Positions 1-6,431 of a stretch of DNA of 40,266 nt are shown piece after piece; within the stretch, counting starts at the first letter, position 1; every line of letters starts with the position of its first letter. The notes below the pieces were generated by a model, which saw only the letters and a program-made list of their open reading frames with translations, searched no databases and was not told the DNA's origin. Made by a program: the position numbers and the translations under genes. Source of the DNA: Gammaproteobacteria bacterium (GTDB lineage Bacteria > Pseudomonadota > Gammaproteobacteria > JAKDMP01); NCBI GenBank assembly GCA_030452225.1, contig JAKDMP010000003.1:1-40266 (forward strand), in the 5' to 3' direction.

Positions 1-158
1 TGTCCTCGTTGCCGAGAATCGTGACCTTGCGTAATTTCGCATTGCATCCAACGGACAAATCCGGCTCGGGTGCCGAACTTTCCTTTACCGTCACGGCTGA
101 AACCTATCGTTATCGCAGCGATTTGAACGGCGGCGATTCAAAGGATGGGAAACAATGA
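1..158 (+). CDS. pilO: Type IV pilus assembly protein PilO, C-terminal part (5' end outside window)
   Basis: Frame starting at 3 reads SSLPRIVTLRNF...FTVTAETYRYRSD...KQ*. LPRIVTL and TYRY are typical of the PilO C-terminus; the stop overlaps the pilP ATG (ATGA 155-158). Confidence 0.85.
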   Translation, partial: SSLPRIVTLRNFALHPTDKSGSGAELSFTVTAETYRYRSDLNGGDSKDGKQ

Positions 159-694
159 GATTGAACACGCTTCATCATTGCCGATTTGTGTTGGCGGGCG
201 CGTTGGCGCTGACCGGTTGCCTGGTTTTGTCGGGCTGCAGCGACGGCAACATGGATGAGCTGCACACCTGGGTTGCCCAGGTCAAGGCACGCCCCGGGCC
301 GCCGCTGAAACCGATCCCGACCATGCGGCCGTATCAGCCTTACACCTATCCCCAGACGGACTTGCGCTCACCTTTTGTCGAAGTCGCCCCCCAAAGGGTG
401 AGCAAGATACACCCCGATCTGGAGCGGCCAAAAGAGTATCTGGAACGCTTTCCCCTGGACGCGCTCAAGTTTGTCGGGGTCATCACCTTTGGCGGTACGA
501 GATATGCACTGATCCGGGACCCCGAAGGCGTGGTTCACCGCGTCAGCGCAGGGCATTATCTGGGCCAGAACAATGGACGAATCGAGACCATTCTGGGCGG
601 CAAGGTCGAACTTGTCGAAATTGTGCCCAATGGCACCGGCGGCTATATGCGGCGTCCAGCGTCGCTCAAGCTCGCCCAATCAAGCGGAGACTAG
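155..694 (+). CDS. pilP: Type IV pilus assembly lipoprotein PilP
   Basis: Lipobox LSGC; motifs LRSPF, RPKEYLERFPLDALKFVG and GHYLGQNNGRI; lies between pilO and pilQ. Confidence 0.93.
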   Translation: MRLNTLHHCRFVLAGALALTGCLVLSGCSDGNMDELHTWVAQVKARPGPPLKPIPTMRPYQPYTYPQTDLRSPFVEVAPQRVSKIHPDLERPKEYLERFPLDALKFVGVITFGGTRYALIRDPEGVVHRVSAGHYLGQNNGRIETILGGKVELVEIVPNGTGGYMRRPASLKLAQSSGD

Positions 695-695
695 T

Positions 696-2843
696 ATGAA
701 ACGCATCTTTCCAAGGCACGGTACGGCAATGCTTTGCGCCGCTGCGATGTTGATTGGCGGGAGTTTGTCCGGGGCATGGGCTGCGCCCTCCACCACGCGC
801 ACCCTGAATTCAATCCAGACGATTTCGCTTGGCGGCGGCAAGGTCGAAGTGGATCTCGAGCTGAGTGCTCCACCGCCCCAGCCAATCAGCTTCAGCGTCA
901 ACCAACCGGCCATGATCGTCCTGGACCTTCCCGGGACTGCCTCGGCTCTCGAAAAGTCAAGCCAGATCGTGAACGTCGGGGGCATCACGCGCATCGATAC
1001 CGCCTCGACGTCGGGCAAGACACGGGTTGTTATCCATCTGACCGATATGGTCGGCTACCAGACCGAAGCCAAAGGGGATCACATTTACCTCACACTGGGG
1101 GGCGCTACCCATCAAGTTGCCGCGGGCAAGGCCGGCGCGCAACAAACCTTTGGTCCGGTTTCGGGCGCCAGCCCCGGCGCCGCTCCACAGTCCGGCGCCA
1201 TTACGGACGTGACTTTCCATCGTACGCCCGGGGGCGCGGGGCGAATTGAAGTTACGCTCTCCGGCGCCTCGGTTGCGGGAAACGTCAAACGCGAAGGGGA
1301 TCGGGTCATCGTCACTTTTCCCGAGACGGATGTCCCGGCACGCCTGGTCGAGCGCCTGAACGTCACCGATTTTGCCACGCCGGTTACCGCGGTGACGACT
1401 CGAAATACGCAAGCGGGCGCGCGTGTGACAATTCAGACCAGCGAGCCGTTCGAACAACTTGCCTATCAGGCGAATAATACCTTTGCGGTCGTGTTGAAAC
1501 CGGATTCCGCGCAGCAAAAGGCCGCTGCGACGATTGCCGAAAAGCAGTACACGGGGGAAAAACTCACCCTGAACTTCCAGAGCATTCCGGTGCGCTCGGT
1601 ACTCCAGATTCTGGCCGAATTCACGGGCAAAAACATCGTGGTCTCCGGAAGCGTCAACGGCAACATCACTCTGCGGTTGCATGATGTTCCCTGGGACGAG
1701 GCGTTGGATATCATTTTGAAAACCCAGGGCTTGGCCATGCGCAAGGTGGGTGACGTGATCATGATTGCGCCGGCGGTCGAATTTGCCAGGCAGGAAAAAG
1801 CGCGCCTGCAGGCGCAGAGCCAAGTAAACAAACTCGTTCCGTTGCGTACCGCTTACCTGCAGGTCAATTACGCCAAGGCGGCCGATTTGGCGGCCCTGAT
1901 ACAGGCACAGAAGAACTCCCTTCTATCCGACCGGGGTACCGTGACTACCGACAAGCGCACCAATACCCTCATTGTGCGGGATACTCCCAGTCATATATCC
2001 CAAGTGCGCAAGCTGGTCAGTGTGTTGGACATTCCCGTACAACAGGTGCTCATCGAGTCGCGTATCGTCATCGCCCAGAACACCTATGAACGCGATCTTG
2101 GCGTTCGTTTCGGTGCGACGGGCGTGGCCGTCGGTGATAGCAGCACCATCGTAACCACCGGCAGCCTGGACGGCACGAGTACCATGCTCAATGGAAAAAC
2201 CGGGGGCGCGCCCGGCCCTTACCCGGTTCCCCCCGACCTGAACGATCGGCTCAATGTCAATCTGCCGGTAAGCCCTGCCGCGGGTCAATTCGCCATTTCC
2301 ATCCTCAATAGTGCGTTCCAGCTGGATCTGGAATTGTCCGCGATGCAGGCCGAGGGCAAGGGCAAGGTGGTTTCCAGCCCGCGGGTCATTACCGCCGATC
2401 AACAGACGGCAACCATCGAGCAGGGCGTGGAAATCCCGTACCAGAATGCCAGCTCCAGCGGCGCCACGGCGGTGCAATTCAAGAAAGCGGTGATGAGCCT
2501 CGAGGTGACGCCCCAAATTACACCGGACGAGCGCATTTTGATGGCCATAGAAGTGCACAAGGACAGCGTGGGCAAATTCGTGCCCACCGCCAACGGGGGC
2601 CAGGTCCCGAGCATCGACACCCGTACGGTCACCACGAGCGTGCTGGTCAACAATGGCGACACCGTGGTGTTGGGCGGAATTTATGAAATCGAGCAGTCGC
2701 ATTCCACCAACAAGGTTCCGATTCTTGGCGACATTCCGATTCTCGGCTATTTGTTCCGCAGCACCACGACGGTGAACAACAAGAAGGAATTGTTGATCTT
2801 CGTGACGCCGAAGATACTCTCTTCGGAATTGTCTCGACGTTGA
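696..2843 (+). CDS. pilQ: Type IV pilus secretin PilQ
   Basis: Likely start ATG 696 (MKRIF..., signal peptide); AMIN-like N-terminal domains; YTGEKLTLNFQ, VPWDEALD; secretin C-terminal motif KVPILGDIPILGYLFRS...ELLIFVTPKI. Confidence 0.96.
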   Translation: MKRIFPRHGTAMLCAAAMLIGGSLSGAWAAPSTTRTLNSIQTISLGGGKVEVDLELSAPPPQPISFSVNQPAMIVLDLPGTASALEKSSQIVNVGGITRIDTASTSGKTRVVIHLTDMVGYQTEAKGDHIYLTLGGATHQVAAGKAGAQQTFGPVSGASPGAAPQSGAITDVTFHRTPGGAGRIEVTLSGASVAGNVKREGDRVIVTFPETDVPARLVERLNVTDFATPVTAVTTRNTQAGARVTIQTSEPFEQLAYQANNTFAVVLKPDSAQQKAAATIAEKQYTGEKLTLNFQSIPVRSVLQILAEFTGKNIVVSGSVNGNITLRLHDVPWDEALDIILKTQGLAMRKVGDVIMIAPAVEFARQEKARLQAQSQVNKLVPLRTAYLQVNYAKAADLAALIQAQKNSLLSDRGTVTTDKRTNTLIVRDTPSHISQVRKLVSVLDIPVQQVLIESRIVIAQNTYERDLGVRFGATGVAVGDSSTIVTTGSLDGTSTMLNGKTGGAPGPYPVPPDLNDRLNVNLPVSPAAGQFAISILNSAFQLDLELSAMQAEGKGKVVSSPRVITADQQTATIEQGVEIPYQNASSSGATAVQFKKAVMSLEVTPQITPDERILMAIEVHKDSVGKFVPTANGGQVPSIDTRTVTTSVLVNNGDTVVLGGIYEIEQSHSTNKVPILGDIPILGYLFRSTTTVNNKKELLIFVTPKILSSELSRR

Positions 2844-2879
2844 TGCAAGCGCGGAGCGGTCTTTGAAATGGAGAAGAGC

Positions 2880-4661
2880 ATGAAATGCAAATTCGGAGTC
2901 ATCGGTGCGCTGGGAATTTCGCTCCTGATTGCCGGTTGCGGTGGAGGTAGTCTGAACGGAGGCGATGAGCCGCCGCCCCCGATCGAGTCGGCAGTCCAGC
3001 TTGGCAGCGTCGTCGGCGGCGCGTTCCAGGCAGGGGTACTGGAAATAACTACTCCACAATTGTCGGCGGGCGGCTCGACGACCGTCTCGGCAGCGTTGCA
3101 ATACACCGATGGTACGCCGTACACGGGCTCCGCCACCATCACGTTTACTTCTTCCTGCTACCAGAACGGACTGGCAACTTTTACGGTCGACGGCGAGGCA
3201 ACCAACGCTGTGACCACGGCCACCGGACAGGCAAATATTACTTATTCGGCCAAAGGTTGCAGCGGGTCGGATACGATCACCGCGACGACCAGCATTGACG
3301 CCGACACCCTGACCGCCACCGGCGTTGTCACGGTGGCGCCGGCCAGCGTGGGATTCATCCAGTTCGTTTCCGCCACCCCCGATATCATCTCCTTGAATGG
3401 CACCGGGGGGCCGCAGACCTCGACGGTGATTTTCCAGGTCACAAACTCTTCCGGCGGACCCGTACCCGGAGCCAGAGTGGAGTTTTCACTCGACACAACG
3501 GTCGGCGGCATTACCCTGGCGCCCTCGAGCGCCACCACGGGCAACAACGGCCAGGCGCAAACGATTGTAAGGGCGGGAACGCAGCACACCACCGTGCGCG
3601 TGACGGCCACCGTCCACACCGACGACGGCAGAACCATCTCCACCCAGTCGCCGGGGATCGTCATCAGCACCGGTATTCCGACGCAGAAGCATTTCTCGCT
3701 TTCCCTCTCGAAGCATAATCTGGAAGGCTTCAATACCGACGGCCTGACCTCGAGCGTGCAGGTCATTCTTTCCGATCGGTTCGGCAATCCGGTTCCGGAT
3801 GGCACCCAGATCGCATTTACCACCAATGGCGGGCAGATCGGTCCATCGTGTACTACCCTTGGCGGTAGTTGCTCGGTACCTTGGACGAGCGCCAATCCAC
3901 GCCCCTCAAACGGCCCTCTGTCCGTCATCGGGCATGCGACGATTCTTGCCTATGCCACCGGCGAGGAGAGTTTTACCGACGTCAACGGCGACGGCATCTT
4001 CAACGTCGCGAACGGAGTAGCGGATACGTTCAGTCTGGTCCCGAATCCGGGGGCGCCGAACAATCCCGGCGACAATTTCTACGGCATGCCGACGGCGGAC
4101 GAAATTGGAGAGGTGTACCTGGACCAGAATCAGAACGGGGCATACGATCTGGGGGAATTCTTCTTCGACTTCAACCATGACAGCGTGCGCAACAACCCCG
4201 GCTGGGAGCTGGCCGCCAAGGGCGCTCGTCAATATCACGGTTACGGTTGCGAGGGGCCGGTCCCGGTCCCGGATCCGAACAACCCGGGTGCAACGATCCC
4301 GGTCCAATGCGGAACCTCGACGGTGGGCGTGGGGCTGGAGGATTGCATCGTAATGACGACTTCGGCCGTCGTTATCAGCGGGCCGGGCAACCTCAATCCC
4401 GGCCAGAGCGTCACGTATTCCGTGTCGGATTTGAACGGCAACGTACCGCCGGCGGGCATGCAGTTTACCATCCTTGCCAATGGCGCCGACGCGAGCGTCC
4501 TGCAGGAGGAGGTGCCCGATATCGGGGGTTGCCCCATACCGCCCGCCGCCTACACGATCAATGTCACCGTTTCCGCTACGTCCCAGCCGGGAAGCTTTCG
4601 AATCCAGGCCGTATCCCCCCAAGGGCTCGTGAGTTACAGCAACGCGATCACCGTGAACTGA
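2880..4661 (+). CDS. Predicted outer-membrane lipoprotein with bacterial Ig-like (Big_1/invasin-type) domains
   Basis: GGAGAAG upstream of ATG 2880; lipobox LIAG-C then GGGS; Thr/Gly-rich beta repeats (FQVTNSSGGPVPGARVEFS; LSDRFGNPVPDGTQIAFTT); DxNxxG loops in the C-terminal half. Confidence 0.75.
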   Translation: MKCKFGVIGALGISLLIAGCGGGSLNGGDEPPPPIESAVQLGSVVGGAFQAGVLEITTPQLSAGGSTTVSAALQYTDGTPYTGSATITFTSSCYQNGLATFTVDGEATNAVTTATGQANITYSAKGCSGSDTITATTSIDADTLTATGVVTVAPASVGFIQFVSATPDIISLNGTGGPQTSTVIFQVTNSSGGPVPGARVEFSLDTTVGGITLAPSSATTGNNGQAQTIVRAGTQHTTVRVTATVHTDDGRTISTQSPGIVISTGIPTQKHFSLSLSKHNLEGFNTDGLTSSVQVILSDRFGNPVPDGTQIAFTTNGGQIGPSCTTLGGSCSVPWTSANPRPSNGPLSVIGHATILAYATGEESFTDVNGDGIFNVANGVADTFSLVPNPGAPNNPGDNFYGMPTADEIGEVYLDQNQNGAYDLGEFFFDFNHDSVRNNPGWELAAKGARQYHGYGCEGPVPVPDPNNPGATIPVQCGTSTVGVGLEDCIVMTTSAVVISGPGNLNPGQSVTYSVSDLNGNVPPAGMQFTILANGADASVLQEEVPDIGGCPIPPAAYTINVTVSATSQPGSFRIQAVSPQGLVSYSNAITVN

Positions 4662-4683
4662 TACCTGCCGCTTGCGTGATCGC

Positions 4684-5241
4684 ATGGCGGATGCATCCAT
4701 CTCCACGGCCCGGCGCCATGCGGGCAAGCGCTTGGCCCTTGTCGGTCTGCCGGGCAGCGGCAAGACGACGGTCGGGCGGCTGCTTGCCCACAGGCTGGGC
4801 TTCGGGTTTTGCGATTGCGATGCCAGGTTCGAGACGGATACGGGTTGGACCATCGGCGCATGGGTTGCCGAAAACGGCTGGCCGGCTTTCCGTGCCCGCG
4901 AAAGCGATCTCCTGCTCGCCGTGTTGAAGCGCGACCAATGTGTAATCGCCACCGGAGGCGGCGTGGTGGAATACGAGAAGAACCGCTCGGCGCTGGCCGG
5001 GCGTTCCAGGGTGGTTTGGCTCGACGCGCCGATCGCCGTACTGCAGTCGCGGCTTTCCTCGGCGCCGGCCCGACCGCTTTTGGGAGGCAAGCCGAATCGG
5101 CTCCTGGCCGATCTCGCGCGGCAGCGTGAGCCGCTGTACCGGGAAATTGCCGATTTTGTCGTCGCGGCCGGCAGTGAGGGCCCCGAGGGCGTTGTGGACC
5201 GCGTCGTCCATGGTCTCAACCTGTCCCGTGACCGGGCATGA
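4684..5241 (+). CDS. aroK: Shikimate kinase
   Basis: Walker A GLPGSGKTTVG, FRARE, VIATGGG, RPLL, REPLY; directly upstream of aroB. Start codon uncertain (4672 or 4684). Confidence 0.93.
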   Translation: MADASISTARRHAGKRLALVGLPGSGKTTVGRLLAHRLGFGFCDCDARFETDTGWTIGAWVAENGWPAFRARESDLLLAVLKRDQCVIATGGGVVEYEKNRSALAGRSRVVWLDAPIAVLQSRLSSAPARPLLGGKPNRLLADLARQREPLYREIADFVVAAGSEGPEGVVDRVVHGLNLSRDRA

Positions 5242-6332
5242 GCGGTTTCGAGTTGGCAGTCGAGGGAATCGATTACCCGGTATGGGTCGGCGCACGTGAA
5301 GAGATCGATGACAGGTTGAATCGGCTGATTGCGGGCCGGGACCTTCTGGTGGTGACCGACGGCAACGTCGCCTCCGTTCATCTGGAATCGTTTCGGGCCT
5401 CGTTTGCGTCCGCTGCACGCCTGGAGACGCTCGTGCTGCCTCCCGGAGAAAGTGAAAAGACCCTGGCCGGGTTCGAGCGGATCATCGCCGCGCTGGTCGC
5501 CGGCAGATTTCACCGCGACGCCGTGGTGGTGGCGCTGGGCGGCGGCGTGGTGGGAGACACGGCAGGTTTTGCCGCCGCCTGTTATCAGCGCGGGGTGGAC
5601 TGGATTGCCGTGCCGACGACCTTGCTTGCGCAGGTGGACGCTGCGCTTGGCGGCAAGACCGCCGTCAACCATCCGGCAGGCAAAAACCTCGTGGGCGCCT
5701 TCCACGATCCGGTGGCGGTATGGATCGACCCCGCGACACTGGCCAGCTTGCCGCCACGCGAACTCCGCGCCGGCTTCGGTGAAGTGGTCAAATACGGACT
5801 GGGTTTCGATGCCGGTTTTTTTGCGTGGCTGGAAGATCATGCCGAAGCGCTGGGCATGGGCGAGCAGGCCGGGTTCGCCGCGGTGGTTGAGCATTGCGCG
5901 CGCATCAAGCTCAAAATCGTGGCGGCGGATCGCACCGAACACAGCGAACAGGGCGGGCGTGTATTGCTCAATCTCGGTCATACCCTGGGACATGCGCTGG
6001 AAACCGCACTGGGCCACGGCTATTGGTTGCACGGCGAGGCGGTGGCCGTCGGGCTTGTGGTTGCTGCGGAACTTTCCCGCGCCCGCCGCAGGATTGACCC
6101 CGATTTGCCGACACGGCTTCGCCGCTTGTTGCACGCGCTGCATTTGCCCGCGGCAATTCCTGATGCGCTCGAAACGGAGTCGCTCATGCAGGGCCTTGCG
6201 CTCGACAAGAAGATCGCAGGGGGCAGGCTGCGCTTTGTCGGGCTGGAAGCACCGGGGCGTGCAGTGGCCTGGAACGATGTGGCCGCGGATGAGCTCGAGC
6301 AGGCCATCGATGCCGCCCGTACCCGCCCATGA
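5238..6332 (+). CDS. aroB: 3-dehydroquinate synthase
   Basis: GGGVVGD, PTTLLAQVDAALGGKT, GKNLVGAFH, LNLGHTLGHALE, LHGEAVAVG, DKK motifs. Confidence 0.96.
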   Translation: MSGFELAVEGIDYPVWVGAREEIDDRLNRLIAGRDLLVVTDGNVASVHLESFRASFASAARLETLVLPPGESEKTLAGFERIIAALVAGRFHRDAVVVALGGGVVGDTAGFAAACYQRGVDWIAVPTTLLAQVDAALGGKTAVNHPAGKNLVGAFHDPVAVWIDPATLASLPPRELRAGFGEVVKYGLGFDAGFFAWLEDHAEALGMGEQAGFAAVVEHCARIKLKIVAADRTEHSEQGGRVLLNLGHTLGHALETALGHGYWLHGEAVAVGLVVAAELSRARRRIDPDLPTRLRRLLHALHLPAAIPDALETESLMQGLALDKKIAGGRLRFVGLEAPGRAVAWNDVAADELEQAIDAARTRP

Positions 6333-6369
6333 AGGCGTGCAGCGGGCGCCTGACTGGATTGATCCCATA

Positions 6370-6431
6370 GGGCACACAGAACGCAGAGCTTGCCGAGTGC
6401 GAGTATTCGCCTCCGTGCGTTCTGCGTACCC
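6370..6431. repeat. Intergenic inverted repeat (REP-like hairpin)
   Basis: GGGCACACAGAACGCA (6370-6385) vs TGCGTTCTGCGTACCC (6416-6431), 14/16 complementary, with an inner GCGA-GTAT-TCGC hairpin. Confidence 0.55.

Follow-up and report, generated by a model that had tools for sequence, protein, structure and literature searches.

The stretch of DNA analysed here (hereafter the window) comprises 40,266 nucleotides from a Gammaproteobacteria bacterium (GenBank assembly GCA_030452225.1, contig JAKDMP010000003.1, positions 1 to 40,266 of the forward strand), and it encodes a lipoprotein of 593 residues between pilQ, the secretin gene of the type IVa pilus, and aroK, the gene for shikimate kinase. 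We found that several gammaproteobacterial lineages carry the lipoprotein gene as a conserved addition to the pilMNOPQ-aroKB operon. As for its product, we see about an even chance that it is a surface adhesin with an immunoglobulin-like (Ig) stalk, similar to InvL of Acinetobacter baumannii and co-expressed with type IVa pili.

Conservation beside pilQ

By scoring 8000 candidates from a word-indexed homologue search, we found 1662 proteins at E ≤ 0.001, with full-length relatives of 550-600 residues that are 40-67% identical to the window protein. Because of these homologues and full-length relatives, the lipoprotein gene is real and no chance open reading frame (ORF) of high-GC DNA. The homologues carry PF02369 and PF09134. 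The names given to them by their sources are uninformative ('hypothetical', 'Ig-like' or 'Big-1'), and one, 'methionine-rich copper-binding protein CopC' for homologue P0011 (61% identity), is apparently a misnomer that no search supports.

Among GTDB-representative genomes, at least 604 stretches matched our search patterns and 484 of those listed encode a relative; locus counts were drawn from the best 80 loci of these 484. Upstream neighbours were counted where at least 1.5 kb precede the lipoprotein gene (69 loci), and downstream neighbours where at least 1 kb follows it (70 loci). A same-strand PilQ gene lies upstream in 61 of the former and an AroK gene downstream in 62 of the latter, both being present in 51/61. 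The distance from the pilQ stop to the predicted lipoprotein start has a median of 40 nt and does not exceed 60 nt in 57 of 63 loci. An initial annotation of the window had drawn attention to the adjacency to pilQ, and the survey indeed found homologues strongly and widely linked to it. The record titles of carriers include Steroidobacteraceae, Woeseiaceae, Salinisphaeraceae, metagenome-assembled genomes (MAGs) labelled Chromatiaceae, and the cultured Spectribacter hydrogenoxidans; no listed pathogen is among the carriers encountered.

The lipoprotein is also co-inherited with PilQ. Pairwise distances of the two proteins correlate with a Pearson coefficient of 0.72, a value reached by none of 999 permutations in a Mantel test. 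Of the two, the lipoprotein is the faster-evolving one (mean p-distance of 0.51, vs 0.41 for PilQ). Since the distances correlate, the adjacency across so many loci is best read as a single old insertion inherited with the operon, rather than as many independent events.

In the window itself, the six-frame listing gives an open frame at 2868..4661 (+) of 597 residues, with an in-frame ATG at 2880 that yields 593 residues. ATG 2880 is the likelier start, because only this codon has a Shine-Dalgarno sequence upstream (GGAG at 2870-2873, 6 nt ahead), nothing comparable preceding ATG 2868. The stop codon of pilQ (TGA, 2841-2843) is thus followed by a 36-nt spacer, and the lipoprotein stop codon (4659-4661) lies 22 nt before the in-frame ATG 4684 of aroK, in agreement with the initial annotation, or 10 nt before aroK if this gene starts at TTG 4672. 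The same annotation had noticed no terminator between the three genes, and a consensus scan of 2600-5000 likewise returned no terminator-like and no promoter-like site (shuffled sequences gave 2.4 and 0.7, respectively). This absence is compatible with read-through from pilQ, without proving it. The sequencing runs listed for window 2400-5300 were DNA runs from a single study, with no RNA run among them.

The arrangement breaks in several genomes. The window's order holds only nine genomes, too few for an informative survey at that level, and 41 relatives and 80 loci were examined overall; counts of order, class and relative genomes include two unpublished genomes (G004 and G006), and the 80-locus survey of public records is independent of both and gives the same arrangement. 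The lipoprotein gene is carried by seven of the nine genomes of the order, and nine of the 41 relatives have any match. Two genomes of the same family, G003 (95% complete) and G005 (75% complete), are devoid of the gene, with pilQ abutting aroK, and keep PilY1 as well as PilW/PilF over cut-off. In G043 (Woeseiaceae) and G045 (Sinimarinibacterium), pilQ and aroK are contiguous and a paralog of the lipoprotein is found elsewhere. Hence the gene is not present wherever the machine is present, as would be expected of a core component, and given that G003 and G005 do without it, the lipoprotein is dispensable in close relatives and is no core part of the type IVa pilus machine.

In three loci (L052, L075 and L089), aroK is displaced and the lipoprotein gene remains with pilQ. 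In the first of these (L052:7613-10247, a Steroidobacteraceae MAG), genes for GspH/FimU-like and PilW minor pilins follow the lipoprotein gene in place of aroK, and in the two others a two-component system lies downstream. Conversely, in loci L090 and L092 the lipoprotein gene stays with aroK, with an opposite-strand ABC (ATP-binding cassette) transporter upstream. For L092, pilMNOPQ was located on a different contig of the genome. The genome of L090 (G041) yielded neither PilM nor PilP nor a PilQ over cut-off, but its completeness is not established, so that their absence is not shown. Moreover, comparing the PilQ proteins with a lipoprotein neighbour (n = 57) to those without (n = 6, a small set) revealed no residue or indel that separates them. 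The proposal of the initial annotation, namely an accessory component of the pilus machine, is therefore not supported: G003 and G005 lack the gene and keep PilW and PilY1, one lineage has uncoupled it from pilQ, and PilQ bears no signature of its neighbour.

Domain build of the lipoprotein

The N-terminus of the protein, MKCKFGVIGALGISLLIAG followed by the cysteine, matches the signal peptidase II lipobox [LVI][ASTVI][GAS]-C. The initial annotation had read this lipobox as LIAG-C with Gly at +2, and both are present, the lipidated residue being Cys20. An AlphaFold model of the full chain, built from 20 full-length homologues (alignment A1; mean predicted local distance difference test score, pLDDT, of 80.6 and predicted template modelling score of 0.57), comprises four Ig-like beta-sandwiches at residues ~38-157, 158-262, 263-362 and 494-593 (Ig1, Ig2, Ig3 and Ig5) and a loop-rich module at 363-493, hereafter the calcium-loop module (CaL). 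The tandem Ig-like repeats announced by the initial annotation are thus found as folds; as sequence repeats they are not, the domains being divergent and Pfam detecting a single significant Big_1 stretch (residues 177-252, 36.8 bits vs a cut-off of 34.9). The lipobox followed by a chain of Ig domains nonetheless corresponds to the build of a lipid-anchored adhesin that it had suggested.

Residues 338-593 were modelled separately from 40 sequences (alignment A2) and compared with 48,161 chains by VIA-align. Only the last Ig domain found matches, namely intimin D0-D1 (6tpl, Z 9.2, rmsd 2.4, 89 aa), macroglobulin MG domains (Z 9.1-9.2), invasin (1cwv, Z 8.1), FdeC (Z 8.1) and LigA (Z 7.3), and the calcium-loop module had no fold match either in Foldseek or in VIA-align on this C-terminal fragment. 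With the full model, Foldseek returned uninformative matches to generic multi-Ig proteins at template modelling scores of 0.13-0.25, including MG domains of bacterial alpha-2-macroglobulin (A2M). Pfam gave nothing significant on 40 C-terminal fragments (SdrD_B in 7 of them, best E 0.011), a sequence-profile search of the PDB gave a sialidase Ig domain as sole match (E 0.01), matches in the ESM Atlas were limited to Big_1 or hypothetical clusters, and NCBIfam has no family for the protein. Neither Pfam (at E ≤ 0.1 for LysM) nor NCBIfam revealed enzyme, tetratricopeptide repeat (TPR), LysM or barrel domains in it.

The calcium-loop module owes its name to two EF-hand-like loops, vs 0.05 expected from the shuffled protein; at least two such loops occur in 59 of 72 homologous locus proteins. 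The second, DQNQNGAYDLGE, departs from the 12-residue consensus of canonical EF-hand loops solely by its Tyr at position 8. A Pro/Asn/Gly-rich insert that is predicted to be disordered (residues 387-406, window 4038-4097) lies inside the module and is lineage-specific, being confined in alignment A1 to closer relatives of the window protein. The mature chain has eight cysteines, forming the conserved pairs 93/127, 324/331 and 457/477 plus 489 and 551, and is rich in Gly (12.9%), Thr (12.2%) and Ser, with 0.7% Lys, 1.6% Arg, 4.7% Asp and 2.8% Glu. This predicted anatomy fits an exported, disulfide-bonded, calcium-binding rod.

The build is shared by the family. All 73 family proteins examined have a lipobox within their first 60 residues and 63 of them have the domain order Ig1-Ig2-Ig3-CaL-Ig5, longer forms gaining Ig domains on the membrane-proximal side. 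Mean identity to the query is 48-57% in Ig1-Ig3, with Ig2 the highest at 57%, and is lowest in the distal Ig5 (26%). In the same-genus ortholog of G001, at least 12 tandem Ig1 copies come after the lipobox; they are 50-62% identical to the Ig1 of the window and represent a domain amplification within one genus. This ortholog is split, as the Ig1 array (L130, C20:1-7000, minus strand 1-4554) runs off the end of its contig, and Ig2-Ig3-CaL-Ig5 and aroK are on a second contig (L007, C305). Another ortholog measures 1100 residues. The family is a large one, with 880 cluster representatives matched by a profile of the C-terminal module at E ≤ 1e-30 (4303 at E ≤ 0.001); the module recurs in tandem, with up to 23 matched stretches, in proteins of 1.7-4.8 thousand residues, seven of the eight scanned having Big_1/Invasin_D3 as main Pfam matches. 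From their sequence these large relatives look like giant adhesins.

Paralogs in Nevskiales (L074, L081 and L088, from Hydrocarboniphaga, Stagnimonas and Sinimarinibacterium) have 949-1012 residues with a duplicated Ig2-Ig3-CaL-Ig5 block and do not adjoin pilQ. The L088 paralog adjoins a phage-type integrase and the L074 paralog a type IV secretion coupling protein, and the Nevskiales paralogs may be carried on mobile elements. In a genome of another family (L131, G038:C36, minus strand 1791-3284), the gene between pilQ and aroK encodes a 498-residue lipoprotein with C-GGS. Ig1 is the only part that this protein has in common with the hidden Markov models of the family (33% identity over residues 10-377), and it may be a diverged or domain-swapped ortholog.

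Proposed surface display and competing readings

From Cys20 onward, the chain reads C-GGG-SLNGG, where GGG at P2'-P4' matches the Gly/Ser-rich motif published for surface display by type II secretion (the T2SS) and GspN. As described in the available part of the study of Roberts et al. (PMC12802150), T2SS-dependent surface lipoproteins of A. baumannii have a Gly/Ser-rich 'GGG' or 'ND(N/D)' at P2'-P4'. InvL carries GGG, and exchanging its signal peptide and P1'-P8' for those of Pal or LirL abolished surface exposure. According to the same text (PMC12802150), the motif is required, though insufficient, for the GspN/T2SS-dependent display of InvL, and the AsmA-like GspN is needed for this type of transport. 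The initial annotation had deduced Lol sorting from the non-Asp residue at +2, which is superseded by the match to this motif, as far as the source describes it (PMC12802150).

The motif is conserved in the family, where 59 of 73 members have GG at P2'-P3' and 35 have GGG at P2'-P4', and is rare among the lipoprotein-like ORFs of the window's own genome (GG in 7 and GGG in 2 of 111, as collected with a crude regular expression). This genome also encodes GspD (517 bits vs a cut-off of 351; G000:C66) and GspN (108.5 bits vs a cut-off of 29.6; G000:C14). GspN is over cut-off in all nine genomes of the order and in 10/10 further carriers, including G041 with no detectable PilQ, and in only 9 of 32 class genomes of other families.

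Four other large lipoproteins with C-GG(G/S/D) are encoded in the same genome (G000 C44:14794-16857, C46:16241-17548, C57:7956-9941 and C175:18534-19964, corresponding to L138-L141). They comprise a TIG domain with a PQQ propeller, Big_9/cadherin, a beta-helix, and Big_9 with Calx-beta and Lcl_C. Such domains are typical of extracellular proteins, and the four are candidates for a surface set displayed by GspN and the T2SS.

We propose that the window protein would be a lipoprotein of the outer membrane that is exposed at the cell surface. A short Gly/Pro tether would join its lipid anchor to a rod of the invasin/intimin-type domains Ig1-Ig2-Ig3, then the calcium-loop module and then the variable distal Ig domain. 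The gene would be transcribed with pilQ from a pilMNOPQ-aroKB transcript, so that the protein would appear alongside the pilus pore. Because the C-GGG motif is present and the genome has GspD and GspN, export to the surface would probably follow the T2SS/GspN route, as for InvL and PulA. The protein might act as an adhesin or surface-contact stalk that is stabilised by calcium and produced simultaneously with type IVa pili, its short-range attachment complementing the long-range attachment by the pilus, and would not belong to the structure of the pilus machine. A location at the cell surface is suggested by the sorting motif, the long forms, the variability of the distal domain and the giant Big_1 relatives. 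An Ig domain is about 4 nm long, and the forms with at least 12 Ig1 copies or 1100 residues are therefore estimated to be too long for the periplasm.

Several points weigh against the proposal of a surface adhesin. The link with GspN is confounded by the relatedness of the carriers, so that the contrast between families is overstated, and the non-carriers G003 and G005 have GspN as well. The length argument depends on one fragmented MAG ortholog spread over two contigs and on a per-domain length taken from general knowledge. Unlike InvL, invasin and intimin, the protein has no lectin-like tip that we could find: its C-terminal 100 residues matched Ig-like domains only and module 363-493 had no match, and no ligand can be named. 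Finally, the tight conservation beside pilQ fits an accessory of the machine equally well.

The lipoprotein might instead face the periplasm as a Lol-sorted outer-membrane lipoprotein unrelated to pili, with a role in envelope spacing, binding or shielding, its gene being a frozen ancestral insertion. Inner-leaflet sorting by Lol is the default in the absence of Asp at +2, as known from Escherichia coli, and MG domains of bacterial A2M are among the Foldseek matches of the whole model. The order pilQ-aroK is itself frozen with no known functional link, and hence inherited position alone is weak functional evidence; pilQ-aroK-aroB is conserved as such, being contiguous in G003, G005, G043 and G045, the Mantel result fits one old insertion, and some lineages have lost or uncoupled the gene. 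We nevertheless regard a periplasmic protein as unlikely, since C-GG(G/S) is conserved in the family, rare among the lipoproteins of the genome and matches the surface-display motif in the available text of PMC12802150. Furthermore, the extended forms would, by our estimate, exceed the periplasm, the variable distal domain and giant Big_1 repeat relatives suggest the cell exterior, and with only 593 residues the protein has no thioester or A2M domain in Pfam.

Slightly more doubtful still is a partner of the secretin, which would bind the PilQ multimer through the membrane-proximal Ig domains and act as belt, cap, stabiliser or lineage-specific assembly factor. Such a partner would agree with the same-strand adjacency to pilQ at a short distance, with the persistence of the gene beside pilQ in the three loci where aroK is displaced (one of them ahead of minor-pilin genes), and with the higher conservation of Ig1-Ig3, the part nearest the anchor. 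It would also agree with the correlated distances of the two proteins, but vertical co-inheritance alone would give the same co-variation. There is a precedent in the Ig-like-fold lipoprotein DR_1364 (GspP), which forms a 15-fold belt round a Deinococcus secretin, as far as the available part of the report goes (PMC10828601). However, G003 and G005 dispense with the gene while keeping PilW and PilY1, it is found away from pilQ in L090 and L092 (in G041 with none of PilQ, PilM and PilP found, completeness not being established), and no residue or indel distinguishes the PilQ proteins that have this neighbour. An Ig1 copy number ranging from 1 to at least 12 would also be odd for a stoichiometric ring subunit.

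A last possibility, which we consider improbable, is that the lipoprotein is a cargo of the pilus machine, reaching the surface through or with the PilQ secretin as PulA and InvL do by the T2SS. This would explain why the gene adjoins pilQ and would suit its surface-type sorting motif, and the T2SS and the type IVa pilus machine are homologous and both have secretins. On the other hand, GspD and GspN offer a complete alternative route in every carrier checked, even in G041, and no GspN-like gene is known in the pilus machine. To the wider idea that PilQ itself exports or holds the lipoprotein, either as lipidated cargo or as an extracellular collar of Ig domains round the pilus exit, we give a similarly slim chance. 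If true, lipoproteins would be displayed by the pilus machine in parallel to the display of PulA and InvL by the T2SS, which would explain the persistence of the gene behind pilQ across gammaproteobacterial lineages. The small probability left over is reserved for explanations that did not occur to us.

Locus features and relation to known systems

The features of the locus are collected below. PilQ has two AMIN domains (PF11741, two stretches), N0, N1 and the secretin domain, with PF00263, PF03958 and PF07660 matched, and the start of aroB overlaps the stop of aroK. An antisense open frame of 823 residues (window 3906-6377, minus strand) runs across the lipoprotein, aroK and aroB genes and was taken for a high-GC artefact because it overlaps three well-supported genes.

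Features of the pilQ-aroK region, in window coordinates
Feature	Position	Strand	Basis
pilP (179 aa)	155..694	+	PF04351 PilP 5.7e-43
pilQ (715 aa from ATG 696), secretin of the type IVa pilus	696..2843	+	TIGR02515 521 bits vs cut-off 284
pilQ-to-lipoprotein spacer, 36 nt, with GGAG 2870-2873	2844..2879	+	sequence reading
Lipoprotein ORF, 593 aa, stop codon included	2880..4661	+	ORF listing, Pfam, homologue search, AlphaFold model
Lipoprotein signal peptide, lipobox LIAG-C, lipidated Cys20	2880..2939	+	translation
Tether with sorting motif (residues 21-37, predicted disordered): GGG-S-LNGG followed by a Pro-rich linker	2940..2990	+	pLDDT <50, residues 1-35
Ig1 (residues 38-157), membrane-proximal, conserved Cys93/Cys127	2991..3350	+	model; invariant alignment columns
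Ig2 (residues 158-262), Pfam Big_1 domain	3351..3665	+	PF02369 4.4e-9, residues 177-252
Ig3 (residues 263-362), conserved Cys324/Cys331, ANPRP motif	3666..3965	+	model; alignment A1
Loop-rich calcium-loop module CaL (residues 363-493), conserved Cys457/Cys477	3966..4358	+	models; loop-pattern count
EF-hand-like loop DVNGDGIFN (residue 367)	3978..4004	+	pattern count
EF-hand-like loop DQNQNGAYDLGE (residue 415)	4122..4157	+	pattern count
C-terminal Ig-like domain Ig5 (residues 494-593), distal, most variable	4359..4658	+	model; VIA-align
aroK, shikimate kinase (start TTG 4672 or ATG 4684)	4672..5241	+	PF01202 2.4e-43
aroB, 3-dehydroquinate synthase	5238..6332	+	DHQ_synthase PF01761 3.4e-44; PF24621 1.5e-37

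The closest known counterpart by architecture, rather than by sequence, is InvL, an invasin-like Ig chain that is lipid-anchored and brought to the surface by the T2SS, according to the accessible text of PMC9245377. The window protein resembles it in being anchored through a lipobox and not through a beta-barrel, in having GGG at P2'-P4' and an invasin-type Ig chain, and in that the genome encodes GspD and GspN; it differs by its tip, which is another Ig-like domain placed after the calcium-loop module. InvL is not reported beside pilQ in the available parts of the two studies (PMC9245377, PMC12802150). With intimin and invasin, the protein shares Big_1 by Pfam, the superposition of its last domain (Z 9.2 and 8.1) and a variable number of stalk domains. 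It is lipid-anchored, however, with no N-terminal beta-barrel (Pfam, model) or LysM and no C-type lectin-like tip detected, and because it has no barrel it lies outside the intimin/invasin autotransporters. Lig proteins of Leptospira are surface-exposed and bind calcium; they are likewise lipid-anchored chains of tandem Ig-like domains (LigA, Z 7.3), but made of Big_2 rather than Big_1, specific to spirochaetes and without a pilus-operon context.

The pilotins PilF/PilW/Tgl are also outer-membrane lipoproteins, tied to the function of PilQ, and the window gene sits in the pilQ operon. The initial annotation had held the lipoprotein to be distinct from PilF, TsaP and PilY1, and rightly so: the window protein has no TPR and an all-beta model, unlike pilotins, and no LysM, unlike TsaP, and its genome encodes a separate PilW homolog (G000:C82). 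A replacement of the pilotin was rejected, PilW (TIGR02521) being present with and without the gene in 8 of the 9 genomes of the order, and so was a replacement of PilY1, which is found in all nine. SlkA and SlkB, periplasmic PilQ plug proteins encoded elsewhere according to the available part of PMC13392014, were set aside as unrelated periplasmic proteins. GspP of Deinococcus radiodurans (DR_1364) is a secretin-associated lipoprotein of Ig-like fold as well, but consists of a single IPT/TIG domain of 155 residues in a 15-mer ring, as described in the available text (PMC10828601), whereas the window family has five modules in variable copy number. With alpha-2-macroglobulins, only the generic Ig/MG fold is common, the window protein having 593 residues and no A2M or thioester family in Pfam. 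Bacterial alpha-2-macroglobulins have about 1500 residues, with a thioester domain besides their MG domains.

Among proteobacterial gene orders, the pilMNOPQ-aroK-aroB string ranks with the most stable. Lipid-anchored invasin-like surface proteins are already known as a kind, and our full-text literature search found no paper on a lipoprotein gene between pilQ and aroK. The novelty, as far as our searches show, lies in this family, in its calcium-loop module and in the constant position of its gene within the operon of the pilus secretin. Both a surface adhesin and a secretin partner are testable, since a cultured carrier exists (the strain behind L083). If the lipoprotein is a partner of the secretin, the type IVa pilus machine would gain a new accessory. 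If it is a surface adhesin, the InvL/PulA class of the T2SS and GspN would extend to environmental Steroidobacteraceae, Woeseiaceae and Salinisphaeraceae, C-GGG would become testable as a predictor of surface display beyond Acinetobacter, and the locus would tie the display of a short-range adhesin to the expression of the pilus pore.

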